Shown here one piece after another: positions 3,950 through 61,500 of a stretch of 64,000 bases of DNA. Under the pieces are notes generated by a model that saw only the letters and a program-made list of their open reading frames with translations, was not told the origin of the DNA and did no database searches. Within the stretch, counting starts at the first letter, position 1; every line of letters starts with the position of its first letter. The position numbers and the translations under genes are program-made. This stretch comes from Verrucomicrobiota bacterium (GTDB lineage Bacteria; Verrucomicrobiota; Kiritimatiellia; RFP12; UBA1067): positions 7 to 64,006 of the forward strand of contig JBNMKZ010000004.1 of the NCBI GenBank assembly GCA_050874585.1, given 5' to 3'.

Positions 3950-5446
3950 ATGAATACGTATATGGATCGGTTTATGGAGGCCTTCCCCTACGAGGGATTG
4001 ACCTATGATGACGTGACGCTGGTGACGCAGTATGCGGACTTTTTGCCAGACGACGCCTCTCTTGAGACGAAACTGACGTCGCGCACGAAGATGAAAATTC
4101 CGTTTATGTCTGCCGCGATGGATACGGTGACGGAGGCCCCGATGGCGATTGCCATGGCACTGGCCGGCGGCATCGGGTGCATTCATAAGAACTTGGAGGA
4201 GGATGAGCAGGCCGCACAGGTCCGCCTCGTGAAGAACCACCTCAACGGCATGATCGAGAACCCGGTCTGTTTTCATGAGAACGATGACATCGGTTACCTG
4301 CGCAGCGAGAAGATTGCTCGCAAGTTGAAGTTCAACGGCTTCCCGGTACTGGACGACCAGAACCGTCTTGTCGGCATGATTACGTCGAGCGATATGCGGT
4401 TTGCGCCGATGAACGCGGCGAAACTGAAGGACGTGATGCAGAAGGGCCTGCTGACGGCCAAGCCGGGGACGACGCTGAAGGAGGCCTACGACCTGATGCG
4501 CGAGAACAAGATTGGCAAGCTGCCGCTCGTGGATCAGGATGGCCATATCGTTGGTCTTTACAGCTTTACGGATGTCAGCCGTATTGTTGAGAACGCCGCC
4601 GCGCCATCCAACTGTGATGACAAGTTCCGCCTGCGTGTGTCGGCATCGGTCTCGGGCGGCAAGGGCGACCTTTCGCGCATGGAGAAACTGGCGGATGCCG
4701 GTGTTGACGTGGTGGTCGTCGATTCGGCGCATGGGCACACGAAGGGCATCATGGACATGACGGAGTACATCGTCAAGCACTTCCCGAAGGTGGATGTCAT
4801 TGCCGGAAACATTGCGACGGGCGAGGCGGCGGTGGCCTTGGCCAAGTGCGGTGCGCATGCCGTCAAGGTTGGCATCGGGCCTGGGTCGATTTGTACGACG
4901 CGTGTCGTCTGTGGCGTGGGCATTCCCCAGCTGACAGCCGTCTACAACGCGGCGAAGGCGTTGCGCGGCACGGGAGTTGCGGTCATTGCCGACGGTGGCA
5001 TCAAGCTCTCGGGCGATGTTCCGAAGGCGTTGGCGGCGGGTGCCGACTCCGTGATGCTGGGGTCCGTCCTTGCGGGTACCGAGGAGTCCCCGGGCGAGAA
5101 AATCTACTCGAACGGCCGTCAGTATGTCGTCTATCGTGGCATGGGGTCGCTTGCCGCGCTCAAGAACGGCAAGGGATCGCGTGCGCGCTATTTCCAGGAT
5201 AACGAGTCCGAGGATGACCTCGTGCCGCAGGGCATCGAGGGCATGGTTCCGTACTCGGGTCACGTGAAGTCGATTATGACCCAGTTCTGTGGCGGCCTCC
5301 GTGCTTCGCTCGGCTACTGCGGTGCGAGGACGATTGCCGAACTCCAGGAGAAGGGCAAGTTCTTCCGCGTGACCACGGCGGGTCTGCGCGAGGCGCGTCC
5401 GCACGACATCACAATTACCAAGGAAGCCCCCAACTACCGGACCTAA
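3950..5446 (+). CDS. guaB: IMP dehydrogenase
   Basis: CBS pair plus the catalytic loop [11 protein letters not shown]; 498 aa. Confidence 0.95.
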
Positions 5447-6205
5447 GTGAGCGCGAAAAAGGGAAAGTCGTTTCAGGATTACGGCCGTGAGTGGCTGGAC
5501 ACGCTGGTCGTCGCGATTTCGGTCGCGATGGCCTTCCGTGCTTACTTCTTTACGCCGTTCAACATTCCGACCGGCTCCATGCAGCCGACCCTCTGGGGTT
5601 ACCATACGGAGGCCGGAACCGAGAAAGGGTCATGGGACACTTTCCCCCTTTCGCTTCTCAAGTGGGCTTGGACGGGCGAGCGCGTCGTCGACTACCGTGC
5701 GCCGGCGAGCGGAACCGTTCGCTTTGCGCCGCGTAACGACGGGTTCGCCGATGTCGCCGTCGGGCTATCCCCCGAGGTCTTCAAGTTGCCAACGGATGCC
5801 TGTGCCGCGCTTCAGGGACGCTACTTTCGGGAGGGTGAGACGCTGTGGAAGGGCACGATTAAGACGGGCGACTTCATCTTCGTCAATCGCTGGATCTGGA
5901 ACTTTCGCCGCCCGCGTGTCAATGACGTGATGATTTTCTCAACAACCGGTATCGAAGGCCTTCAGCAGGGGACGCACTACATCAAGCGGATGAAGGCGAC
6001 GCCGGGCATGACATATCAGTTGGAGCACCCGATTGAGGGCGGTCCTCGTGCCGTGACGATGGGCGAAGACGAGTATTTCGCCTGCGGGGACAATTTCAAC
6101 AACAGTTTCGACAGCCGCTACTGGGGGCCAGTCCCTGGCACTAAACTGCGCGGGCTGGGCAGTGTCGTATTTTGGCCGTTTAACGGATGGAGGATAATAA
6201 GATGA
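5447..6205 (+). CDS. lepB: signal peptidase I
   Basis: Boxes GSMQPTL (Ser), IKRMKATPG (Lys) and GDNFNNSFDSRYWG. GTG start immediately after the guaB stop. Confidence 0.9.
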   Translation: MSAKKGKSFQDYGREWLDTLVVAISVAMAFRAYFFTPFNIPTGSMQPTLWGYHTEAGTEKGSWDTFPLSLLKWAWTGERVVDYRAPASGTVRFAPRNDGFADVAVGLSPEVFKLPTDACAALQGRYFREGETLWKGTIKTGDFIFVNRWIWNFRRPRVNDVMIFSTTGIEGLQQGTHYIKRMKATPGMTYQLEHPIEGGPRAVTMGEDEYFACGDNFNNSFDSRYWGPVPGTKLRGLGSVVFWPFNGWRIIR

Positions 6206-13225: not shown

Positions 13226-13267
13226 GGTGGAATCGTTTCCAGCGCGGCAAACTTTACGCATGGGAGA

Positions 13268-13290
13268 TTCGAGCGCGGCAGTTTAGTTTT
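13268..13290 (+). repeat. hairpin module CGCGGCA-loop-TGCCGCG, shared with the 5' extensions of repeat copies B and C
   Basis: The same 7-bp stem occurs at 58158-58179 and 61068-61121, with similar flanks (GAGCGCGGCAGTTT...TGCCGCG..TGCC.GTGG). Confidence 0.6.
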
Positions 13291-13446
13291 GCCGCGTGTG
13301 CCGTGGGGAGAACTTGCCTATTGGGAAGGAAGGACGGGCTCGTGCCTACGAAGACGCGCTCCCATCGGGACGAAAGCGTTCTCTTTTCCGCAGGAAGAGG
13401 GGCGGATATCCCGAAGGGAACGGGTTTTGATGCCCATCAGGAAGGG

Positions 13447-13530
13447 CAAGCACTAAGGTGGTTTGGATAAAGCACTAAGGTGCTTTGCTCAAAGGACTAA
13501 GGTGCTTTGTTGAAAGGACTAAGGTGCTTT
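13447..13530. repeat. four 18-bp 7-4-7 near-palindromes at exact 22-bp spacing (array I core)
   Basis: Units CAAGCAC-TAAG-GTGGTTT, AAAGCAC-TAAG-GTGCTTT and AAAGGAC-TAAG-GTGCTTT (x2) start at 13447, 13469, 13491 and 13513. Confidence 0.9.
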
Positions 13531-13612
13531 CCCTTCGTATTCCGCAACGCAGCCCTTCCTTATGGGCAGAGCAACCCTTCCTATTGGTGCAAAACGCCCA
13601 TCTTTTTGGGCG
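13531..13612. repeat. right arm of array I: CCCTT/CCCAT motifs every 22 bp, ending in a CGCCCA/TGGGCG hairpin
   Basis: CCCTT at 13531, 13553 and 13575; CCCAT at 13597. They are mirrored by AAGGG 13442, ACGGG 13420 and AGGGG 13398 about a dyad at 13488.5. Confidence 0.7.
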
Positions 13613-13846
13613 AAACTTTTCATTTTCTCAAGGAAGCGGGCGGACGCAAATCACCGTGATTCAAGATGCCCCTATCCATCTCGAAGTGCCGCGTTCCCTC
13701 GCGTCTGCCGCGCCCCTCGGGTACGCGCGCCGTTCGGATCTCGTTCTCAGGTTCTCCGACTTCCTTGTGTAGCGTTCTGAGGGCTTCCTCTTGGATTGCG
13801 CAATTTCCACTTGTTTTGATTCCGTTGTACGCTGAAAACATAATTA

Positions 13847-26627: not shown

Positions 26628-26723
26628 CGCGGACGGGATAATGCGCCTACATCGTTTTGACGCTTTGTTCCGCGTGGACGGTTTTTGGATATTTTGTTTT
26701 GAAACCCATAAGAAGGATGGGGA

Positions 26724-27567
26724 ATGAAAGTATCGCGAATGCTTGTTTATGCGGGCTGATGGGCCTGCCGTTCTTTTTGCAGGCGGCGGGTGCTCCCTCG
26801 GACTATCCAATGACCGATGTCAACCGGATGTTGGCCGATGATGTGCGCGGCGAGGCATTGAGATCGTTGACTACCATCTCCATGTTCGGGGCGGCATGAC
26901 CCCAGAGAAATGCGTTTCGCGAGAACGGGCGTGGATTGTCCGTTCAAGTGCCATGGACAATCATGGGCGGGAGTGGGAGACGAGTACGGACGCGCAATTG
27001 TGCGCTTTTGCCGCGAAAGCCCGTGCGGCGAGCGCTGGAATGCCAGTTGGCATCCAGGTGAATGACCGGGATTGGTTTGAGCAGATTGCGCCGAAGACGC
27101 GGCAGAAGTTTGACTATATCCTTGCGGATACGATGATTTTTGGCAATGATTCCGACTGGCGAAAGAATTGCCTTTGGAATCCGCAGAAGATTGTTGACGA
27201 GGACAAGTGGATGGAAGCCTATGTGAATCACCACCTGAGGATTCTTTCCGAGCCGATTTCCATTTTGGCGAACCCGACCTATCTGCCGGTCGAAATTGCC
27301 GGTGACTACGATCGGCTCTGGACGGAAGAACGGATGCGGCGGGTGATTGGTAAGGCCGTTGAGCGGGGTATTGCGATTGAGATTCAGGCGGCATCGCCTT
27401 TCCCCCGGCCGAAGTTTCTGCGCCTTGCCAAGCAAATGGGGGCTAAATTCTCGTTTGGAACGAACAATTTTGATGACCGCCCGAAGGACTTAACGCATTG
27501 GCTTGATGTCATCACTTGGCTTGACTTGCATGGGGAAGACATTTGGAAGCCAGGCGATTTGAAGTAG
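26724..27567 (+). pseudogene. PHP/amidohydrolase-like metal-dependent hydrolase, apparently disrupted by two single-base frameshifts near the 5' end
   Basis: The SD-preceded ATG 26724 gives MKVSRMLVYAG then a stop. The signal peptide continues in another frame (LMGLPFFLQAAG...). The metal motif VDYHLH lies in the main frame, upstream of its first ATG (26896) and downstream of a stop at 26839. Confidence 0.55.
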
Positions 27568-27605
27568 GGTGCGGTGTCGCTAACCGCTGCAATTATGTGA
27601 TGTTT

Positions 27606-27640
27606 GCCAGCCACTCCTTGCGGATGGCTGGCGGCTTTTA
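27606..27640 (+). terminator. probable rho-independent terminator
   Basis: GCCAGCCA / TGGCTGGC stem, then GGCTTTTA. Confidence 0.6.
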
Positions 27641-27774
27641 TGGGTGGGTGTGAATGCATTCGTTTTTCCTGTCGGTTTCGTGTTTCTGCCATTTTTATTC
27701 GTGGCGGTTTTTTTGTCACGAATCGCGGTGAATGAATGCAGGCGTAAGTGAAATAACACAAAAGCCCGTGCGTA

Positions 27775-29876: not shown

Positions 29877-29915
29877 GGGATGCCGCGGAAGCTTCGCGGC
29901 ATCCCTTTGCTCTTT
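29877..29915 (+). terminator. rho-independent terminator
   Basis: GGGATGCCGCG / CGCGGCATCCC 11-bp stem, then TTTGCTCTTTG. Confidence 0.75.
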
Positions 29916-30287
29916 GTCGTCCTGCAAAGCCACCTTTAATTTGATGACTTGAAAGGGCCATTGGCCTGCAGAAAGTCCCTAATCCTTCTTGGCAAGACAT
30001 GGAGCGTAAGCATACGCCGTTTCTCCGTTGAGTGATTTCCTGTGAAAGGTGTCCCCAGTCCTCAAGAGATTTCCGCGCCTTGTTACGCGGCAGAAGCCCG
30101 TACTCTTGGGGTGTCTACCGCCTGACGAGGCGGTGGCAGTTCTCGATGCCGCGCTTCCCGATGTGGCTGTAGAATGCCCTCAGACACGGGATGGCCGTGC
30201 GGATTATCATCCACGCGTCGACGGGGAACGAAGGAGTCCCAGCGCGGCGTGCCTGAAGAGAACGGGTTGGCATGGGCAAGGGAAGCG

Positions 30288-30379
30288 TCTGGGATGCGCA
30301 ACCCAACGGGTCTAACTTGCGCAACCGAAGGGGTCTGGGATGCGCAACCCAAAGGGTTTAGGTTGCGCAACCTAAAGGG
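30288..30379. repeat. four tandem 23-bp units with a TGCGCAACC core (array II, left arm)
   Basis: tctgggatgcgcaacccaacggg / tctaacttgcgcaaccgaagggg / tctgggatgcgcaacccaaaggg / tttaggttgcgcaacctaaaggg. Unit 4 contains the perfect palindrome GGTTGCGCAACC. Confidence 0.9.
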
Positions 30380-30463
30380 AAAGGACTAAGGAGGTTTCTT
30401 CAAAGGACTAAGGTGCTTTGATCAAACCACCTTAGTGCTTTGTGCAAAGGACTAAGGTGCTTT
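30380..30463. repeat. four 18-bp 7-4-7 near-palindromes at 22-bp spacing (array II core)
   Basis: AAAGGAC-TAAG-GAGGTTT, AAAGGAC-TAAG-GTGCTTT, AAACCAC-CTTA-GTGCTTT and AAAGGAC-TAAG-GTGCTTT start at 30380, 30402, 30424 and 30446. This is the same unit family as 13447-13530. Confidence 0.9.
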
Positions 30464-30749
30464 CCCGTTCTCCTGCTTGTCTTCACTCGTGGAGACAAGC
30501 CTCTCCACTCTCTGTAATCGTCAAAAACCCCGTTTGTGATGAGCATTTCCGCATCGATTCATGCAGTCGCGGGAGCTCGCATCCGCGCGAACGGGCGCAG
30601 GGTGATGCGCAGGTCCCGCCTGACGGCCCCGTCGTGCTCGTCGGGATTCTGCGCTCCCGGTCGGGCGAGGTTCCTTCCTCTTTTACGGACCCATTCGGTT
30701 TTACAATTTTCCGATTTCTTTTCTGCACTTGCACAGGAGGCGCGGAATT

Positions 30750-54859: not shown

Positions 54860-56575
54860 TTACGCGAGAAGCGCACGAATGGCGTCGACGGCTCCGTCGG
54901 GCGCAACAATCTTCATCTGCGACTTGTCCTGGTCGCGGCGCTTGATCTCGATGCCGCCATTGGCGAGCCCCTTCGCGCCAACGACGGCACGCACGGGGAA
55001 TCCGATGAGGTCGGCATCCTTGAACTTCACGCCGGGACGCTCCGCACGATCGTCCACGATGACATCAATGCCCGCCGCCTCCAGGCTGGCTTCCAGTGTC
55101 TCGGCGGTCTTGGCGACCTCGGGCTGGTCGGGATCGAGCAGGTCGATGACGACCTGGTAGGGCGCGACCGAGGCCGGCCAGATGATGCCGTCCTTGTCGT
55201 GGCTCTGCTCAATGACGGCCTGAACGGTGCGGCTGATGCCGATTCCGTAGCAGCCCATGACCATGGTCTGCTCCTTGAGTTCGGCCGTCTTGTAGGTCGC
55301 GTGAAAGGCATCCGTATACTTGGTGCCGAGTTTGAAGACGTGGCCGACTTCAATGCCGCGCTTGATGACGAGGGGCTTGCCGCACTTCGCGCAGATGTCG
55401 CCGTCCTTCACCACGATGAGATCCGTGTAGTCCGATTCGGCAATCGAGCAGTCGCGGGCGAGGTCAACGTTCTTGAAGTGGAAGTCATCCTTGTTGGCAC
55501 CGACGATGCAGCCCCGTGCGCCCTTGAGGCCGATGTCGCAGACGATTCTCAGCGACTGGTCGGCGGGTTTCACCGGACCGACTGAACCGGCATTCGCGCC
55601 GGAAGCCTTGAGCACCGTTTCGTAGTCGGCCAGCTCGACTTTCTTCGCATTGAGGAAGTGGCGGAGCTTGACCTCGTTGACATCCCTGTCGCCCTCGACG
55701 CAGACCATGACGGGCTTGCCGTCGGCGGAATAGATGAGGGACTTGACGAACGCCGAGCCAGGCACGCCCATGAACGCGGAAACCTGGTCAATCGTCTTCG
55801 CCCCGGGCGTTGCGACCTCCTCGTAGGCCGGGCATTCGGGGTCGTGTCGTTCGGCAACCTTGCGCTCGGCCTTTTCGAGATTCGCGGCATAACCGCAGGC
55901 ACCACAGAAGGCGATGCCGTCCTCGCCTGCGTCCGCAAGCACGTGGAACTCGTGCGAGAACTTGCCGCCAATGTCGCCGGTGTCGGCCTCAACGGGATAG
56001 GCCTTCAGTCCGCAGCGGGTGAAGATGCGCTTGTAGGCCTCGAACATGGCCATGTAGCTCTTGTCGGCGGCTTCCATGGAGACGTCGAAGGAGTAGGCAT
56101 CCTTCATCATGAATTCCTTTGAGCGCATCAGGCCAAAGCGCGGGCGAATCTCGTCGCGGAACTTCCACTGGAACTGGTAGACGGTCACGGGAAGCTGGCG
56201 GTAGGAACTGATGACGCTGCGAATGACTTCGGTCACGGTTTCCTCGGCCGTCGGACTCATCGCGTAGTCATGCTGGGCGCGATCCTTGACGCGGAACATG
56301 TTCGGACCCATCGATTCCCAGCGCCCGGACTGCTTCCAGAGCTCGGCCGGCTGGAGGACGGGCATCGTGATTTCAAGGGCGCCCGCACGGTCCATCTCTT
56401 CGCGGATAATGCGCGTCACTTTGGCAAAGGCACGCTGGCCGAGGGGAAGATAGGTGTAAAGCCCGCCGGCGAGCTTCTTGATAAGCCCAGCCCGGACGAG
56501 GAGCTTGTGAGAGTCAATTTCGGCATCACCGGGATTCTCCCGGAGCGTCTGAATGAGCGATTTAGTCCATTTCAT
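54860..56575 (-). CDS. proS: proline--tRNA ligase
   Basis: 571 aa, bacterial-type ProRS with an editing insertion. Confidence 0.95.
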   Translation of the reverse strand: MKWTKSLIQTLRENPGDAEIDSHKLLVRAGLIKKLAGGLYTYLPLGQRAFAKVTRIIREEMDRAGALEITMPVLQPAELWKQSGRWESMGPNMFRVKDRAQHDYAMSPTAEETVTEVIRSVISSYRQLPVTVYQFQWKFRDEIRPRFGLMRSKEFMMKDAYSFDVSMEAADKSYMAMFEAYKRIFTRCGLKAYPVEADTGDIGGKFSHEFHVLADAGEDGIAFCGACGYAANLEKAERKVAERHDPECPAYEEVATPGAKTIDQVSAFMGVPGSAFVKSLIYSADGKPVMVCVEGDRDVNEVKLRHFLNAKKVELADYETVLKASGANAGSVGPVKPADQSLRIVCDIGLKGARGCIVGANKDDFHFKNVDLARDCSIAESDYTDLIVVKDGDICAKCGKPLVIKRGIEVGHVFKLGTKYTDAFHATYKTAELKEQTMVMGCYGIGISRTVQAVIEQSHDKDGIIWPASVAPYQVVIDLLDPDQPEVAKTAETLEASLEAAGIDVIVDDRAERPGVKFKDADLIGFPVRAVVGAKGLANGGIEIKRRDQDKSQMKIVAPDGAVDAIRALLA

Positions 56576-56583
56576 AGGCGGAT

Positions 56584-56592
56584 ATTATACCA
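56584..56592 (-). promoter_or_regulatory. extended -10 TGGTATAAT for proS, near-leaderless
   Basis: TATAAT ends 8 nt before the start codon at 56575. A 25-nt repeat-tail module abuts it (56595-56619). Confidence 0.6.
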
Positions 56593-56676
56593 TAAACCGC
56601 CTGCTCGGGGGCTTGCGCGGCGGCCTGCGGGGGGTCGGGGGCGCCGCCCCCGTCCCTTCGCCAAGGCGGCATCGGC

Positions 56677-57102
56677 CTAACGTCGGTTGACGCGGTCGCC
56701 CTTGAGCCGCCAGCTGAAGTCGCTCGTCGAAAGGTCCAACTTGGCAAGGGGGCTGACGCGCACGACAAGCTTGTTCTTGCTCGACAATCTCCCATCCTTT
56801 TCGACCGACCCCTTCAGAAACGGCTGGAGGCGAAGGTAGCCATCCAGATTGACGGCGTTTCCCTTTTCAAGGTGCTCCCGGACCAGGCCCATCACGCACT
56901 CAAACTGGGACTTCAAGAACTCCTCGCTCCCCATGGTGGCACCCCTATCCTTCGCACCCTTGATCAGCTCGTTGAACCCGACGGTCTTCTGCCCCAGTAT
57001 CCTCGGCGTATGCGTCACGGTCTTCCGAATCGGATGCTTGAAGTCGACAACCTGGTACTCCAGGACCTTCCTGTTGGCATACACCTCCAGTTTCTTGCTC
57101 AT
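56677..57102 (-). CDS. HU-like (Bacteroidota-type HU-HIG/DUF4469-like) DNA-binding protein
   Basis: The internal start at 57102 is preceded by the SD aaggag. 141 aa, MSKKLEVYANRKVLEYQVVDF...; the pattern resembles histone-like HU-HIG proteins as I recall them. Confidence 0.6.
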   Translation of the reverse strand: MSKKLEVYANRKVLEYQVVDFKHPIRKTVTHTPRILGQKTVGFNELIKGAKDRGATMGSEEFLKSQFECVMGLVREHLEKGNAVNLDGYLRLQPFLKGSVEKDGRLSSKNKLVVRVSPLAKLDLSTSDFSWRLKGDRVNRR

Positions 57103-57157
57103 GAACCCGAACTCCTTTCTTCGCAAATCCAGTCCCTCATCAACCGGAATGGGAGGA

Positions 57158-57166
57158 ATTGTACCA
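57158..57166 (-). promoter_or_regulatory. extended -10 TGGTACAAT for the HU-like gene
   Basis: Read on the minus strand, about 55 nt upstream of the start at 57102. Confidence 0.5.
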
Positions 57167-57284
57167 TTTCGTACGCATGGACCGCAAGCGGATTCCACGG
57201 TCGCGGCGCGGCAAAAGTACAGGAGCGCGGCGAAATGTCCACAGGAGATAGTGCGATCCTGTACATCAGACGAGCGAGTCCTAC

Positions 57285-57616
57285 TCATGAATGCGGGTCA
57301 TTCCTCTCATGCAAAAGGGCAAGACATCTCATGAACAAGGGTCAACCATGTCACAACGAAGGGCGGAGATGTACAGGACAAAGGGAAAGTACCATGCTAC
57401 TTTTGATAAAGCACCATGCTGGTTTGTCCAAACCACCATGCTACTTTTCACAAACCAGCATGGTGGTTTCCGCTTGTCATAAGATCCCTGACCCTTCTTC
57501 ATGAGATGTCCGACCCTTCTTCATGAGATGTCTTGCCCTTTTGTATGACAGGAATTTCACCAAATCAAGGGAGGAATTGCCCGTCGTCATGAGATTGTTT
57601 GGCCCGTTTCTTAGGA
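57285..57616. repeat. dyad-symmetric array of about fifteen 22-bp-phased units (array III)
   Basis: Left units TCAnnAnnAAGGGnnA start at 57285, 57307, 57329, 57351 and 57372. Four 7-4-7 palindromes with a CATG centre start at 57386, 57408, 57430 and 57452. Inverted copies of the left units start at 57489, 57511, 57533 and 57577. The symmetry axis is at 57427.5. Confidence 0.9.
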
Positions 57617-57617
57617 A

Positions 57618-57898
57618 TGCCGCGGGATGCCTGTGGTCGGCCTTGTCCCTCCTCTCGGGCGAGGGGGTGAGCGCGAAGTGTCGCGAGTGAGGTCTTCCAC
57701 GGGGCGCCACCGTGAGAGTTGTCTTGTCCGAAACCAGTGATAACCACCGAGGCTGGACAGGCTAAGTAAACTTTTGTTGCCCAGGCGCGAAAGGTGAGCG
57801 CAACCGTGGAAGCCGAGACCGAGCGACAGCTTCGCGCAAGCCCCCGAGCAAGCGGTTCCTGCGGGGCAGAACACGAAAACCTTCAGTGAATTTCAGTG
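57618..57898 (+). repeat. long repeat copy A (candidate structured RNA or mobile repeat)
   Basis: 57618-57867 matches 58173-58422 with 2 mismatches in 250 nt. The shared tail CTTCAGTGAATTTCAGTG ends at 57898. Confidence 0.9.
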
Positions 57899-58126
57899 TC
57901 GGTCGATAGACCGTTCAGTGTGTTCTGTGGCAGAAAACAAGCACTCCCTCCACCCACGCCGTCGGATCATCCGTCCCTTCGGGACTGCGAACCCCTCAGT
58001 TCGCCGTCGCCGCGCCCCACCCGCTCCTCCCTCCGCCCGCTCGTGGGCCTGTCCGGGGCTTCGCGAACGGCAGTCGCATGGACGGGGAATGGCACATTCG
58101 GCCCTGCTTGGGAGGCCGGGGAAAAG

Positions 58127-58495
58127 CCACACCGCGCAGGCGTTCAGAAGGCGCAAGCGCGGCAAAACCATCTGCCGCGGGATGCCTGTGGTCGGCCTTG
58201 TCCCTCCTCTCGGGCGAGGGGGTGAGCGCGAAGTGTCGCGAGTGAGGTCTTCCACGGGGCGCCACCGTGAGAGTTGTCCTGTCCGAAACCAGTGATAACC
58301 ACCGAGGCTGGACAGGCTAAGTAAACTTTTGTTGCCCAAGCGCGAAAGGTGAGCGCAACCGTGGAAGCCGAGACCGAGCGACAGCTTCGCGCAAGCCCCC
58401 GAGCAAGCGGTTCCTGCGGGGCTGACACGAAAATTCACGAAAGCCGCCTGACGGCGGACACGAAACCGCCGCGCCCTCTTCAGTGAATTTCAGTG
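58127..58495 (+). repeat. long repeat copy B with a 5' extension shared with copy C
   Basis: The 5' extension CCACACCGCGCAGGCGT...CGCGGCA...TGCCGCG matches 61040-61121. The core is 99% identical to A. There is a 3' insertion relative to A. Confidence 0.9.
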
Positions 58496-58831
58496 ACCGC
58501 CGCTAGGCATGGTAAACTCCAGGGGTAAAAATGGGTGTAGATTGCGAAGTAAGTGGACAGGGGCGACGGTAGGTCGGCGAGGGTCGCTTGTCCCCATGTC
58601 TTGAAGGCACGGATTTGCCTTGGAAGCCAAGACTCCACTGTGGGGCCTGCGTGTCCCGCGCGGAGTCCGTTCATTGGAGATTCCCCAATTTTTGAGGCAA
58701 GAAAATCGCCGCGCCCTTGAAAACAAAGGGTGAAGTGGCGATTTCCGTTTTGCGCCAAGTGAAAATCCGACAATAGGAGCACCGAGGCGTTCCGTGTCGA
58801 GACGCAGAAATTGGCCGTTGCGAGGGGTTCG

Positions 58832-60112
58832 TCATCCCGTGTTCATTCCGAAGAATGCGAAGAGCGACGCCCCGTCCCTCTTCTCGGCTTCCTCGGGGTC
58901 GAACCCGCGCCACCTGCGGCCTCTTTTCAGGATGTCGCTCGCTCCGTCCGCGATGGCGTAGAAGTGGAATTCCGGCACGTCGTGTATCCTGAACGACATG
59001 CGCGCGACGCTTCTTGCGATGACGTCGTGCCTCTCCGAGTTCCCGCTCCATGCCATGCTGAAGTAGACTGTAGTCAGGACGATCGCGGCCAGGGCCTTGA
59101 TCTTGGCGTACCTGAACAGGCGCATGTCCTCGAGGCTGTAGGACTGCTTGACGTGGCGGATGGTGTCCTCGACCCTCCAGCGGGTGATGTATCCCTCCAC
59201 GACCTGCCAGAGCGCCTCGCGCGTCGTTGTCTTCGCGAGGGTCGTCAGCAGCATCATCGGCTTCTGCCCGAACCCCCTCACGACGACCATGTGCAGGAGC
59301 CTGTCGGGGATGTCGGGAAGCCGCACGGGCACGGCGCCGAACTCGATCGTCACGCGACGCTCCTTCCCGTGGTGGTCGAACGTCACGACCTCCCTGTAGC
59401 GCATCCGGCACTCCCAGGCGAGTTCGCCGCACATGACGTTGCGCTTCCAGCTGCGCACGTACCTTTCCTTGAGTCGGACGATGAAATCCAGCCCTTTCCC
59501 GAGGAAATGGCGGTAGAACTCGATGTTGTCTCCGCCACGGTCGTACACGAATATCCCCCGCCTCTTCGTGTGCCTGGTGATTCCATCCACGATGGGCTTC
59601 ACCTCCTCGTTCTCGCTGACGAACCCCGGCGAGTCCGCGGACCACAGCCTGAAGTGCAGCGGAATCGGCCTGCGGCCGCCTGATTCGCGGGCTACGGCCA
59701 TGCAGCCCCAGAAGCCGAGGTTGTCGCCCACCTCGCCCTTGCTCCCGTCCCAGACCTTGGCGAGGTACTCCATCTTCTTCGCGTAGGGCTTCTGCACGTC
59801 GGACGGGTCCAGGATGATGAGCGCGTTCCTGTGGACCCTCCTGGCGCCCTCGGAGGCGATGAGGCGGTGCAGCCCCGCCTCCAGCCCGTCCGACGAGAGC
59901 ATCCGGCTGAGCCTGTCCTCGACCTTTTTCGGGGTGGTTTCCTCCTTCAGCGCGCGGACCACGGACGAGAGCTTCACGTCCTTCTCCGCCATGATCCCGT
60001 AGACCATGTCGCCTATGAAACGGGCGACCGGCTTGTGGAAATGGGGGGAAATCCTCCCCAGAAAAGATTCAAGTTGCCCGAGCAGTTTCGCCGCAATTGT
60101 GGTATCATGCAT
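58832..60112 (-). CDS. IS4-family DDE transposase
   Basis: 426 aa, with YDRGGD and the IS4 Y-x2-R-x3-E-x6-K signature (YITRWRVEDTIRHVK). Confidence 0.9.
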   Translation of the reverse strand: MHDTTIAAKLLGQLESFLGRISPHFHKPVARFIGDMVYGIMAEKDVKLSSVVRALKEETTPKKVEDRLSRMLSSDGLEAGLHRLIASEGARRVHRNALIILDPSDVQKPYAKKMEYLAKVWDGSKGEVGDNLGFWGCMAVARESGGRRPIPLHFRLWSADSPGFVSENEEVKPIVDGITRHTKRRGIFVYDRGGDNIEFYRHFLGKGLDFIVRLKERYVRSWKRNVMCGELAWECRMRYREVVTFDHHGKERRVTIEFGAVPVRLPDIPDRLLHMVVVRGFGQKPMMLLTTLAKTTTREALWQVVEGYITRWRVEDTIRHVKQSYSLEDMRLFRYAKIKALAAIVLTTVYFSMAWSGNSERHDVIARSVARMSFRIHDVPEFHFYAIADGASDILKRGRRWRGFDPEEAEKRDGASLFAFFGMNTG

Positions 60113-60149
60113 GGCGTCGCCTTTCCTGTTTGGTGTTTAGCACTTCGGC

Positions 60150-60158
60150 ATTATACCG
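60150..60158 (-). promoter_or_regulatory. -10 CGGTATAAT for the transposase, within a CTTCGG/CCGAAG palindrome
   Basis: Read on the minus strand, about 38 nt upstream of the start at 60112. Confidence 0.5.
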
Positions 60159-60273
60159 AAGATCGAACTCGAAAGGCGACTCTCTTTCCCAAAAATCGGC
60201 TCATAACCGCGCAGACCGTCGCAACGTCTTGCCAGCGAAGAAAAATGGGGAACCTCCAAAAGCGGATACCCCG

Positions 60274-60303
60274 TTGACATCGGAGAGGCGTTTTTGGTAT
60301 CAT
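60274..60303 (+). promoter_or_regulatory. promoter for tRNA-Met: TTGACA, 18-bp spacer (its last 3 nt are the TGG of the extended -10), TATCAT
   Basis: -35 at 60274-60279 and extended -10 TGGTATCAT at 60295-60303. It lies just outside the IS right end. Confidence 0.6.
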
Positions 60304-60322
60304 ATACGCGTTCACCTTTATT

Positions 60323-60398
60323 GGCGAGATAGCTCAGTTGGTAGAGCGCAGGACTCATAAGCCTAAGGTCAAGGGTTCGATCCCCTTTCTCGCCACCA
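60323..60398 (+). tRNA. tRNA with CAU anticodon (Met, or Ile2 if lysidinylated), encoded CCA, weak anticodon stem
   Basis: Acceptor GGCGAGA/TCTCGCC, D arm GCTC/GAGC, T arm AAGGG-TTCGATC-CCCTT, loop CTCATAA. The anticodon stem has C27-A43 and A31-G39 mismatches. Confidence 0.8.
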
Positions 60399-60434
60399 TT
60401 CTTCACAATCCCTCCCAACGAAGAACTGCACAGT

Positions 60435-60887
60435 ATGAGAATCCTTTTTTGCTGTCACGGCAACATCTGCCGCTCACCCATGGCCGAATTCGTCATGAAG
60501 GAACTGGCCAGAAAAGCCGGGCGCACGGACCTTGTCATCGAATCCGCAGCCCTTCATACGGACGAAATTGGCAATGACATCCATCCCGGCACGCGTGCCG
60601 AACTGCTGAAGCACGGCATTCCCTTTGCACCCCGTGCCGCCTGGCAGCTGACGGCCTCGAAGGCCAAGTCATACGACCTTCTCATTGGCATGGACGACTA
60701 CAACATGGCGGACCTTCGGAGACTGGTCGAGCCTGCCGCGCGCGGCAAAATTCATCGTCTCCTTGCGTACGCAGGGCTTGACCGCGCCATCGCCGATCCG
60801 TGGTACACGGGGGACTTCGACGCGACCTATCGCGACGTTCTCCTCGGTTGCACGGCTCTCCTCAAGGAGATCGCCGCGCCCGCCTGA
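60435..60887 (+). CDS. low-molecular-weight protein-tyrosine phosphatase
   Basis: CHGNICRS (C-X5-R-S) P-loop at residues 7-14 and a DP motif (DPWY). Confidence 0.9.
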   Translation: MRILFCCHGNICRSPMAEFVMKELARKAGRTDLVIESAALHTDEIGNDIHPGTRAELLKHGIPFAPRAAWQLTASKAKSYDLLIGMDDYNMADLRRLVEPAARGKIHRLLAYAGLDRAIADPWYTGDFDATYRDVLLGCTALLKEIAAPA

Positions 60888-60896
60888 GGACGGCCC

Positions 60897-60920
60897 GTCC
60901 CTCTCTCGGGCGAGGGGGTG
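60897..60920 (+). repeat. solo copy of the hairpin module CCCTC-TCTCGGGC-GAGGGGG from the long repeat
   Basis: GTCCCTCTCTCGGGCGAGGGGGTG begins 10 nt after the phosphatase stop. The same module lies inside copies A, B and C. Confidence 0.7.
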
Positions 60921-61039
60921 CGGCACACGGGAAGGGTCGGTTTGAGCCGGCCGAGGCCTGCGGGCGAACCACGGAAAGGCGAAGGGTGGTTTTTAGCCGC
61001 AAGGGACGCAAAGGTCGCAGAGAGTGGGGGAGAGAGGCC

Positions 61040-61353
61040 CCACCGCGCAGGCGTGTGAAGGCGCGAGCGCGGCAGTTTGGGTGGCCTGCCGGACGGCAGG
61101 CCGGCAAGACCATTTGCCGCGTTTTGGCCTGTGGTCAGCCTGTTCCTTCTCTCGGGCGAGGGGGTGCGCGCGAAGTGTCGCGAGTGAGGTCTTCCGCGGG
61201 GCGCCACCGTAGGAGTTGTTTCGTCCGAAACCAGCCGTCTTGTCGAGGCTGGACAGGCTAAGTAAACTTTTGTTGCCCAGGCGCGAGAGGTGAGCGCAAC
61301 CGTGGAAGCCGAGACCGAGCGACAGCTTCGCGCAAACACACGAGCAAGCGGTT
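61040..61353 (+). repeat. long repeat copy C (diverged, roughly 87% identical to A in the core)
   Basis: Collinear with B, including the 5' extension. The 3' half GGCTGGACAGGCTAAGTAAAC...CAGCTTCGCGCAA is nearly identical. It ends directly at a TGATATAAT promoter. Confidence 0.9.
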
Positions 61354-61356
61354 TTA

Positions 61357-61365
61357 TGATATAAT
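61357..61365 (+). promoter_or_regulatory. extended -10 TGATATAAT immediately after repeat copy C
   Basis: Same junction geometry as the proS promoter. Its transcript would run through the poly-C tract toward the 61729 operon. Confidence 0.5.
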
Positions 61366-61483
61366 ATGCGCCGAAAGCGAGAATTAGCGGAGTTTGTGAT
61401 GGAGTCGGCGATGACTGAGATTCGCCCGAGGTGGCGTATAAGCGCACGAAACGGTGCGCCTGCGACTCCGTTTGCTAAGTTTA

Positions 61484-61500
61484 CCCCCCCCCCCCCCCCC
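61484..61500 (+). repeat. homopolymeric tract of 17 C
   Basis: Counted directly and cross-checked against the track translation (PPPPPP). Confidence 0.95.

Follow-up and report, generated by a model that had tools for sequence, protein, structure and literature searches.

The window analysed here, a stretch of 64,000 nucleotides from a Verrucomicrobiota bacterium (contig JBNMKZ010000004.1), contains three copies of a non-coding, 22-bp-phased repeat array. The copy considered in most detail, array C, lies between a small HU-like open reading frame (ORF; 56677..57102, minus strand) and a tRNA-Met gene. As delimited by homology to the orthologous locus L052 (93%) and to the paralogues L043 (93%) and L037 (90%), the whole repeat element occupies 57254..57624; the L-numbers denote array-bearing loci or contigs obtained in the pattern scans described below. 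The element is composed of a left arm of five 22-bp cells ending in GGG (TCATGA...AAGGG units; 57276..57385), a core of four 18-bp dyad units of the form AAASNAS-N4-STNSTTT with 4-bp linkers (57386..57469), and a right arm of cells starting with CCC (CCCTTCTTCATGA units; 57470..57616), which is the mirror image of the left arm. The extended −10 box of the small HU-like gene, TGGTACAAT (57158..57166, minus strand), is located 219 bp from the core edge and faces away from the array, and two copies of a word over-represented genome-wide, GCGCGGC(A/G), are found at the outer edge of the array (57206..57232, plus strand).

The four core units of array C (AAAGTACCATGCTACTTT, AAAGCACCATGCTGGTTT, AAACCACCATGCTACTTT and AAACCAGCATGGTGGTTT) start at 57386, 57408, 57430 and 57452, with a spacing of exactly 22 bp. 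The unit pattern gave eight matches (four sites, on both strands), as compared to 0.00 expected from 100 shuffles, and Tandem Repeats Finder reported a period of 22 in the core and the right arm. In the left arm, GGG recurs every 22 bp (57295, 57317, 57339, 57361 and 57383), with the last GGG abutting the core, and the CCC-starting cells run rightward from 57470. Since the units, the GGG cells and the CCC cells share the same phase, the region forms a single 22-bp lattice of about 14 cells. The arms form an inverted repeat (57300-57363 and 57492-57555 are 84% complementary over 64 nt), and the dyad axis at 57427.5 coincides with the midpoint of the core. This geometry upholds most of the first-pass annotation of the DNA, which had described a dyad-symmetric array at 57285-57616 with the same axis, the same four core units and a phasing that places all of the sites on one helical face. 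The inverted right units that it listed at 57489, 57511, 57533 and 57577 are present, as are the left units at 57285, 57307, 57329 and 57351; its fifth left unit, given as 57372, belongs at lattice position 57373.

Array C belongs to a family of very regular intergenic repeats, apparently undescribed, of which dozens of copies per genome are present in gut Kiritimatiellota, a phylum of the PVC (Planctomycetes-Verrucomicrobia-Chlamydiae) group. A whole-window repeat search revealed two further arrays, each composed of four units spaced by 22 bp between phased flanks. Array A (13287..13620; core 13447-13530), between queH and argG, consists of the units CAAGCACTAAGGTGGTTT, AAAGCACTAAGGTGCTTT and two copies of AAAGGACTAAGGTGCTTT, with phased arms reading GAAGGG at the left and CCCTTC at the right. 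Array B (30199..30625; core 30380-30463), which we refer to as class 1, lies between argD and infC; its left arm comprises four 23-bp units, GTCTGGGATGCGCAACCCAAAGG (30287-30378), and its right arm is unrelated in sequence. When a pattern of two adjacent units was scanned over one genome per species, 55 loci were obtained. About 25 of them are in one uncultured Kiritimatiellota metagenome-assembled genome (MAG) from Hadza stool, CAKTUI01, which is 95-97% identical to the window, an identity that places the window in a gut Kiritimatiellota; many others come from three other stool bins, with single loci under the bin labels Barnesiella, Gemmiger and Lachnospira. The Kiritimatiellota-type bins contain about 45 arrays, with an invariable spacing of exactly 22 bp; 39 of these arrays consist of exactly four units, and the unit number never exceeds four. 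The search for further copies suggested at first pass thus yielded two more arrays in the window and these ~45, and the possibility raised with it, that the phasing and the axis might be lost elsewhere, is not borne out, because all of the other copies, and the orthologous loci as well, retain the 22-bp phasing and the mirror-image polarity of their arms.

The earlier impression that the element belongs to no described family also holds for the records searched. In Rfam, nothing reached the gathering threshold over the whole window, and, at E<=1, the 57100-61500 region returned only tRNAs and noise. Plasmid and phage records searched by BLAST with the element contained no match, and a scan of 2.9 million viral contigs returned one weak two-unit match, which we treated as chance. 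A literature search by organism, geometry and exact unit sequences found no matching element.

In order to characterize the core, we compared 172 units from 43 arrays. Positions A1-3, A6, T13 and T16-18 are near-invariant, in a set collected with a pattern that itself requires the AAA/TTT frame. Positions 4 and 15 are G or C independently on each side and are complementary in 42% of the units, and positions 5 and 14 are complementary in 53%; neither value is above chance. A perfect 7-bp stem is present in 26 of the 172 units, and the other 146 have at least one stem mismatch. The 4-bp linkers between the units carry no information. Since the stem pairs agree at chance level, the hairpin reading fails, and the unit AAASNAS-N4-STNSTTT reads as a protein-recognition frame on duplex DNA. 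The core is laid out as eight AAASNAS half-sites at 11-bp intervals, in alternating orientation.

The central four base pairs of the units behave differently from the linkers. The centre is identical, with either orientation allowed, in 89% of the within-array unit pairs, as compared to 2% for the linkers, and the centres of different arrays agree in 33%. One or two centres dominate per genome: TAAG and CATG in CAKTUI01, CGCG and GCGC in two other bins, CGCA in another, and TGCG in the metagenome family described below. The shared centres may stem from short-patch conversion anchored in the conserved half-sites, which would homogenize the centres only. It is also possible that the sequence of the centre is itself recognized, whether as a code specific to the paralogue or species, as a crossover region or as a target of methylation.

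The arms were compared outward from the core in a set of 46 non-redundant representatives. The only sequence that they have in common is (A/C)CC-n-T, placed at the first lattice positions in each of about four consecutive cells, and this mark supports the delimitation of the right arm of array C. The remaining 18 bp of each cell are free between subfamilies and repeated within an arm, and they often contain a small palindrome (GATGSSCATC, TTGCGCAA or TCATGA). The polarity of the arms is constant, with AAGGG toward the core at the left and CCCTT at the right. Slippage alters the cell count of an arm, while the core remains at four units.

Next, we investigated the genomic position of the arrays, using gene calls from our own codon model. 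The arrays are always intergenic, with no overlap with called genes. Within 450 bp of the arrays, TGnTAnAAT extended −10 boxes face outward in 30 cases and inward in 5, with a maximum for the outward boxes at 200-250 bp from the core edge, immediately outside the arms. Divergent and convergent intergenic regions are equally represented in the Kiritimatiellota set (3 vs 3). In class 1, the X arm faces a gene start in nine of ten cases. An array usually follows the end of a gene and lies upstream of the next promoter facing outward, and the arrays of the window are flanked by queH and argG, by argD and infC, and by the small HU-like ORF and tRNA-Met. A simple promoter and terminator scan of 56600-58000 gave nothing.

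The arrays persist at their loci while their sequences turn over. Array A is kept downstream of queH in eight further strains with identical ArgG, beside which an insertion sequence (IS) and other DNA come and go. Between these strains, G/C toggles occur at unit positions 4, 5, 14 and 15, and one strain has lost one unit. The locus of array C is also retained across three species. In L068, a HU-like protein 92% identical to that of the window has an array of the array C subfamily upstream; in L067, where the protein is 67% identical, the upstream array has three units and belongs to a different, TAAG-type subfamily. The distance from the core edge to the TGGTACAAT −10 box is 219 bp in the window, 218 bp in L068 and 228 bp in L067. 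The association between array and gene that the first-pass annotation pointed out is thus conserved at this locus; elsewhere, the arrays adjoin many unrelated genes. Similarly, the site upstream of gltB is occupied by arrays of different subfamilies in genomes whose DNA is 85% identical. Within three groups comprising orthologues and paralogues, variable columns make up 2 of 96 frame positions and 30 of 156 others (Fisher p=2e-5), a contrast that is inflated by the pattern with which the arrays were found.

The duplex-type conservation, the exact phasing over ~264 bp, the mirror polarity, the persistence at loci through sequence turnover and the location after the end of a gene and ahead of the following promoter lead us to favour, at somewhat less than an even chance, a host-maintained, multi-site protein-binding platform on duplex DNA, comparable to the bacterial interspersed mosaic elements (BIMEs). 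The eight half-sites, one per 11 bp, would accommodate four dimers of one protein, or a continuous head-to-head/tail-to-tail oligomer, on one face of the helix. About four (A/C)CC-n-T-marked cells of mirror polarity on each side suggest that the complex could extend or wrap outward symmetrically over ~264 bp, and four dimers on one face with such an extension would be the simplest stoichiometry. Situated between transcription units, the platform would act as an architectural or regulatory element (an upstream binding array, an insulator or a topological barrier) and might influence transcription or topology in a role like that of BIMEs in enterobacteria.

Several observations weigh against this platform. 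First, the 4-bp centre varies between the arrays of one genome and is constant within an array, which a single frame-reading protein does not explain. Second, the downstream genes, judged by eye, are functionally unrelated (fhs, the citrate synthase gene, gltB, rpsO, argB, argG, dapB, infC, accD, a rubrerythrin gene and others), so that the arrays do not define a classical regulon. There is no fixed helical phase to the −10 box, as the distances from core to −10 share no remainder modulo 11, and the bias toward outward promoters is partly trivial for an element that can be tolerated nowhere but in the stretch from the end of a gene to the following promoter. The comparison of flanking ORFs revealed neither a binding protein nor a gene family recurring beside the arrays; in an all-against-all BLAST covering both the gut family and the metagenome family, the matches were limited to spurious ORFs read across the arrays and to a small number of orthologous pairs. 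The frame requirement of the search pattern also inflates the apparent conservation of the frame. Finally, the arrays behave as dispersed repeats: class 1 has at least 13 copies, 77-93% identical over ~420 bp, and class C, the subfamily of array C, has three copies, 90-93% identical over ~365 bp. CAKTUI01, 95% identical in DNA, carries a class 1 array upstream of argB at a site where the window has none, with the same argB promoter in both, indicating that the array is dispensable at a given promoter.

These last observations support the main rival explanation, which we regard as unlikely but serious: that the arrays are non-autonomous mobile elements, such as MITEs (miniature inverted-repeat transposable elements), repetitive extragenic palindromes (REPs)/BIMEs or BrickBuilt-like elements, spread by an enzyme encoded elsewhere, with a structure that reflects recognition by this enzyme and only incidental effects on the host. 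The multi-copy subfamilies have discrete lengths, and at 365-440 bp the elements have the size of a MITE (50-1000 bp). Many contigs break inside arrays, and an exact-protein look-up of ArgD returned only 1.7-kb contigs that break in an array arm. The species-specific centre types resemble REPs, which co-evolve with REP-associated tyrosine transposases (RAYTs) in a species-specific manner (PMC2817692), and an IS is inserted near arrays at two loci, a feature also described for REPs (PMC1525189).

The ends of the elements and their behaviour at loci argue against mobility of this kind. At the alignment ends of the two aligned subfamilies, class 1 and class C, neither terminal inverted repeats nor a target-site duplication were found; the class C copies are bounded by a common word, TGCCGCG, which is ambiguous as a target duplication. 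The presence/absence check proposed at first pass accordingly gave one filled/empty difference, at argB, and no target duplication, and this sole filled/empty pair (L027 and window 26632-27745) is a sequence replacement rather than a clean insertion. The arms are unrelated between subfamilies, so that one enzyme could read only the core and the CCC lattice. The array A locus is stable in eight strains while an IS moves nearby, and arrays persist across species. No transposase family recurs beside the arrays, and a phmmer search of ~1.6 Mb of array-bearing loci detected no Y1/RAYT ORF, a weak test with two Y1 query sequences.

The class 1 copy in L027 carries along a 61-codon fragment (5270-5460) that resembles the C-terminus of an ACR3-type arsenite carrier, and the first codons of this fragment recur to the left of array B in the window (29975-30000). 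A fragment travelling with the array suggests that some copies may spread by segmental duplication, rather than by precise transposition.

Among the described elements, REP/BIME sequences are the closest in organization. They are known docking sites for gyrase, IHF and Pol I (PMC2817692, PMC3733652, PMC1525189, PMC3333891). Like the REP/BIMEs of Enterobacteria, Pseudomonas and Stenotrophomonas, the arrays are short, imperfect palindromic units in regular modular clusters that are strictly extragenic, present in tens to hundreds per genome, species-specific and variable between strains, with ISs nearby; the three arrays of the window and the ~25 loci of CAKTUI01 show the same extragenic, clustered, high-copy distribution. 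However, the arrays fail the defining REP features that we tested. A REP is an imperfect palindrome of 20-40 bp that keeps its stem through complementary mutations; the palindromy of the arrays is not maintained by compensatory changes, as the pairing at positions 4/15 and 5/14 shows. They have no GTAG (GT[A/G]G) or CGTC tag: the units begin with AAA and end with TTT, and they are flanked by GGG/CCC or by information-free linkers. While REPs are common in convergent intergenic regions (PMC3733652), the arrays avoid such regions, are not enriched at 3′ ends, and lie upstream of promoters instead. The strict 22-bp period, the fixed number of four units and the phased mirror arms marked only by CCC are also unlike REPs.

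BrickBuilt of Porphyromonas gingivalis, a MITE in Bacteroidota composed of a leader, tandem 23-nt repeats and a tail (PMC4596501), provides a precedent for a mobile element of this shape; we compared it by its description only, because the paper shows a logo rather than sequences. Both are three-part intergenic elements in which a central, head-to-tail array of ~22-23-nt units is placed between two flanking modules, and BrickBuilt, with ~19 copies per genome, is likewise stable in position between strains, promoter-associated and limited in host range (PMC4596501). In contrast to the arrays, its bricks are direct repeats in 1-23 copies with no spacer, and its leader and tail are unique and have 12-nt terminal inverted repeats similar to IS ends (PMC4596501). 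The units of the arrays are dyad-symmetric, number four and are separated by 4-bp free linkers, and their flanks are phased repeats without terminal inverted repeats.

The identity of the centres could also reflect a recombination or epigenetic switch, in which the 4-bp centres serve DNA-DNA matching during crossover, or as the target of a methyltransferase, and toggle the neighbouring promoter. The strong difference between centres and linkers is consistent with this mechanism. Furthermore, a unit can flip in place, both between strains (in array A, the centre of unit 2 changes from TAAG to CTTA) and between paralogues, and short palindromes of the kind that methylases typically target are common among the centres (CATG, CGCG, CCGCGG, GTAC, GTTAAC and CTNAG). 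Nevertheless, we consider the switch quite improbable. Segments of 22-44 bp are too short for inversion by looping, several centres are non-palindromic (TGCG and CACG), and no recombinase or methylase recurs beside the arrays. To our knowledge, the 4-bp spacer between 7-bp arms is shorter than that of any tyrosine-recombinase site, and template switching within quasi-palindromes can produce both the flips and the G-to-C toggles.

A transcribed RNA or single-stranded DNA (ssDNA) element, with four tetraloop hairpins or one long foldback serving as a sponge for an RNA-binding protein, a terminator or stabilizer, or the hairpin substrate of an HUH enzyme, is very improbable. Array C does fold far better than its shuffles (z=-5.3 for the core and z=-10.5 for the whole element), and arrays A and B likewise score below theirs, but favourable folds are a trivial consequence of dyad symmetry. 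The four consecutive 7-bp tetraloop hairpins that the first-pass annotation had foreseen are not predicted: the four core units of array C have 1, 2, 3 and 1 stem mismatches, and the core is predicted to form one long foldback. The predicted folds of arrays A and B are other local structures, and thus no RNA or ssDNA structure is predicted in common for the three arrays. The chance-level stem pairing and the mismatches in 146 of the 172 units are inconsistent with a selected hairpin, the arms of class 1 are not complementary, and the architecture is strand-symmetric, with a unit orientation unlinked to the promoter side. As stated above, Rfam offers no match even at E<=1.

Geometrically, the arrays resemble several multi-site systems. 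The pho boxes have a 7-4-7 organization in tandem at 22 bp, the plasmids R6K and pPS10 have 22-bp iterons, and the ParR-parC centromeres and the mirrored DnaA-box arrays of E. coli oriC are further multi-site arrays. In these systems, as in ours, half-sites are one turn apart and sites two turns, so that the subunits lie on one face, and oppositely oriented blocks of sites flank a centre. Unlike the arrays, which are dispersed, variable in sequence and beside unrelated genes, these systems are single-copy and tied to the pho regulon, rep, parMR or oriC. Although a 22-bp period and mirrored arrays do occur in iteron origins, parC-type centromeres and Mu- or Tn7-type ends, the analogies drawn at first pass with an iteron origin, a plasmid centromere or paired multi-site transposon ends deserve almost no credence: three arrays in 64 kb and dozens per genome (~25 in one MAG), without rep or par genes recurring nearby, a skew switch at 57 kb or a convincing plasmid or phage match, exclude a single-copy origin or centromere. 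An end of the Mu, Tn7 or Tn402 type is unlikely: CCC is all that the arms of different subfamilies have in common, conservation is greatest in the centre of the element rather than at its termini, no terminal inverted repeat, target duplication or recurrent transposase was found, and the arms neither enclose nor adjoin any cargo or transposase.

A chromosomal origin or terminus was rejected because the skew does not switch. The GC skew is positive throughout the window. Almost all of the genes (1-54739) are on the plus strand, with a skew of +0.1 to +0.15, and the only minus-strand genes are proS, the small ORF and the IS transposase (the 54860-57102 region and the IS), where the skew dips locally. 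The window holds neither an origin nor a terminus. The Neisseria intergenic mosaic elements (NIMEs) with dRS3 (ATTCCC-N8-GGGAAT) are intergenic mosaics and hot spots of recombination and insertion, and they share with the arrays conserved inverted ends around a free centre; however, dRS3 copies are separated by variable segments of 50-150 bp, with no 22-bp lattice, fixed number or phased arms. ArgR boxes were considered because arrays adjoin argG, argB and argD, and were rejected since the sequence is unlike ARG boxes and the array neighbours are otherwise unrelated. NtrC and CRP/FNR-type sites were also rejected, as, from general knowledge, their half-site spacing does not fit.

A related, very abundant family exists in JGI metagenomes. 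The scan of these metagenomes gave at least 120 loci (L071-L190) among the matches listed, and most of them come from a few samples (Ga0065709, Ga0065711 and Ga0181612). The organism has a GC content of ~57% and a GroEL 63% identical to that of the window, and we found no counterpart for it among the GTDB species representatives. Its units, AAAC[GC]A[CG]-TGCG-GT[CG]GTTT with a 4-bp linker, occur 3-10 per array at 22 bp in the matches listed. Blocks of a second unit type, AAACGAAGGGCATCGTTT, are frequently attached to these arrays, and there is a third type, AAACGAGTTAACTCGTTT; the three types have the centres TGCG, AAGGGC and GTTAAC and are arranged in blocks. The second type reads AAGGG at the left and CCCTT at the right, which is the polarity of the arms in the window, and for this reason the arms look like degenerate versions of second-type units. 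Also among the matches listed, divergent intergenic regions outnumber convergent ones (21 vs 5, p=0.0025), and TAnnTTTG boxes face outward in 98 cases and inward in 22, with a peak 50-100 bp from the array edge. The unit polarity is unrelated to the promoter side. TAnnTTTG is the −7 promoter element of Bacteroidota, and the organism is probably a member of the Bacteroidota, an assignment based only on these boxes. A Pfam search with one candidate protein bearing a Por-type secretion tail gave nothing toward this assignment.

Arrays also occur in unexpected bins. Contigs with arrays in bins labelled Barnesiella, Gemmiger, Lachnospira and Anaerovoracaceae (L006, L036, L040, L050 and CAVGIZ01) have GC contents of 55-64%. 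L006 is syntenic with array contigs of CAKTUI01, and L050 with the unlabelled stool bin CAVLAC01; L006 and L050 are therefore likely mis-binned, and the arrays might be useful as a marker of the lineage. Five- and six-unit arrays in the same frame (AAACGACTATAGTGGTTT with acaa, and AAACGACCGAGGTCGTTT with tcaa) are found on the short contigs L051 and L054, from two termite-type MAGs labelled Azoarcus, and represent either a third lineage or a binning artefact.

Returning to the platform, we can sketch a fuller version of it, which we offer as a speculation and consider rather doubtful. The arrays would be the cis half of a chromosome-organizing or promoter-insulating system, with a dedicated, co-evolving binder, possibly of the HU-HIG type. 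Four core dimers would spread over the CCC-marked arms to form a ~264-bp particle at tens to hundreds of sites, the species-specific centre would be a specificity code shared by the four sites of an array, and the 3-10-unit JGI arrays would belong to the same system.

Structured intergenic repeats such as REP/BIMEs shape supercoiling, transcription boundaries and genome plasticity, and they are known almost only from Proteobacteria. The arrays, found in uncultured gut Kiritimatiellota and, as a related form, in another abundant lineage, are much more regularly built, with 12 cells on a 22-bp lattice and a core fixed at four sites. Were a specific protein to assemble on them, they would constitute a novel bacterial particle, of chromatin or regulatory type, whose sequence code can be read, and provide a handle on gene regulation in organisms without genetics. 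Even if they are selfish DNA, they mark mis-binned contigs (as in the bins labelled Barnesiella, Gemmiger, Lachnospira and Anaerovoracaceae), are a frequent cause of assembly breaks, and represent a case in which architecture, rather than sequence, is inherited.

The small ORF beside array C encodes a lineage-restricted protein of 141 aa, plausibly from a small and very divergent branch of the HU/IHF superfamily. Its start was chosen by an AAGGAG site, which places the ATG ~283 bp from the array C core. It has no Pfam or NCBIfam match even at E<=10, only eight close homologue clusters, and no record in an exact-protein look-up. An AlphaFold (AF2) model is of moderate quality (pLDDT 64), and the top Foldseek matches of this model are all HU, IHF or Bacteroides BVU_2165, albeit weak (E 0.009-0.5). 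The profile of the family matches phage TF1 (E=0.03) and HU-alpha, within a range of E 0.03-0.3. An exhaustive profile search retrieved 114 remote relatives, many of them ~240 aa in length like BVU_2165; several have sub-threshold matches to HU-HIG or HU-DNA_bdg, and one has a borderline match to Bac_DNA_binding. Because these structural, profile and remote-homologue matches are weak, the label "HU-like" given at first pass is plausible but distant. A hidden Markov model of the family finds members only in the window, L067, L068 and, distantly, L028, where the homologue lies beside an array in a different arrangement. Hence, the ORF was rejected as the general partner of the arrays, and it is a weak candidate for an array-binding protein.

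Right of array C, a 253-nt repeat begins exactly at the array edge. It is present at 57618-57870, 58173-58425 and ~61046-61365, with two copies 99% identical and the third 91-96%. The repeat is predicted to form one long imperfect hairpin on the plus strand (z=-4.2), without an Rfam match. It is a separate family, which also adjoins arrays at three CAKTUI loci (L043, L049 and L034). The IS at 58674-60259 encodes a DDE_Tnp_1 transposase (58832-60112, minus strand) between ~19-bp imperfect terminal inverted repeats (TTGGAGATTCCCCAATTTT). Together, two 253-nt repeats and the IS (57625-60261) replace ~100 bp of the CAKTUI orthologue L052. In five other strains, a 96% identical copy of this IS lies right of array A, ~160 bp away, and the IS breakpoint is at a TGCCGCG word near both array C and array A.

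Finally, the 8-mer GCGCGGCA occurs 52 times in the whole window, on both strands and in both genic and intergenic DNA, as compared to 6.7 +/- 2.7 expected (examples are at 13242-13296, 29881-29901, 57206-57232 and 60734-60747). One to three tandem copies (GCGCGGCAGTTTTT) are situated at the outer edge of many arrays, and the word is often arranged in inverted pairs that give hairpins just after genes. It looks like a DNA-uptake-sequence or Chi-like word.

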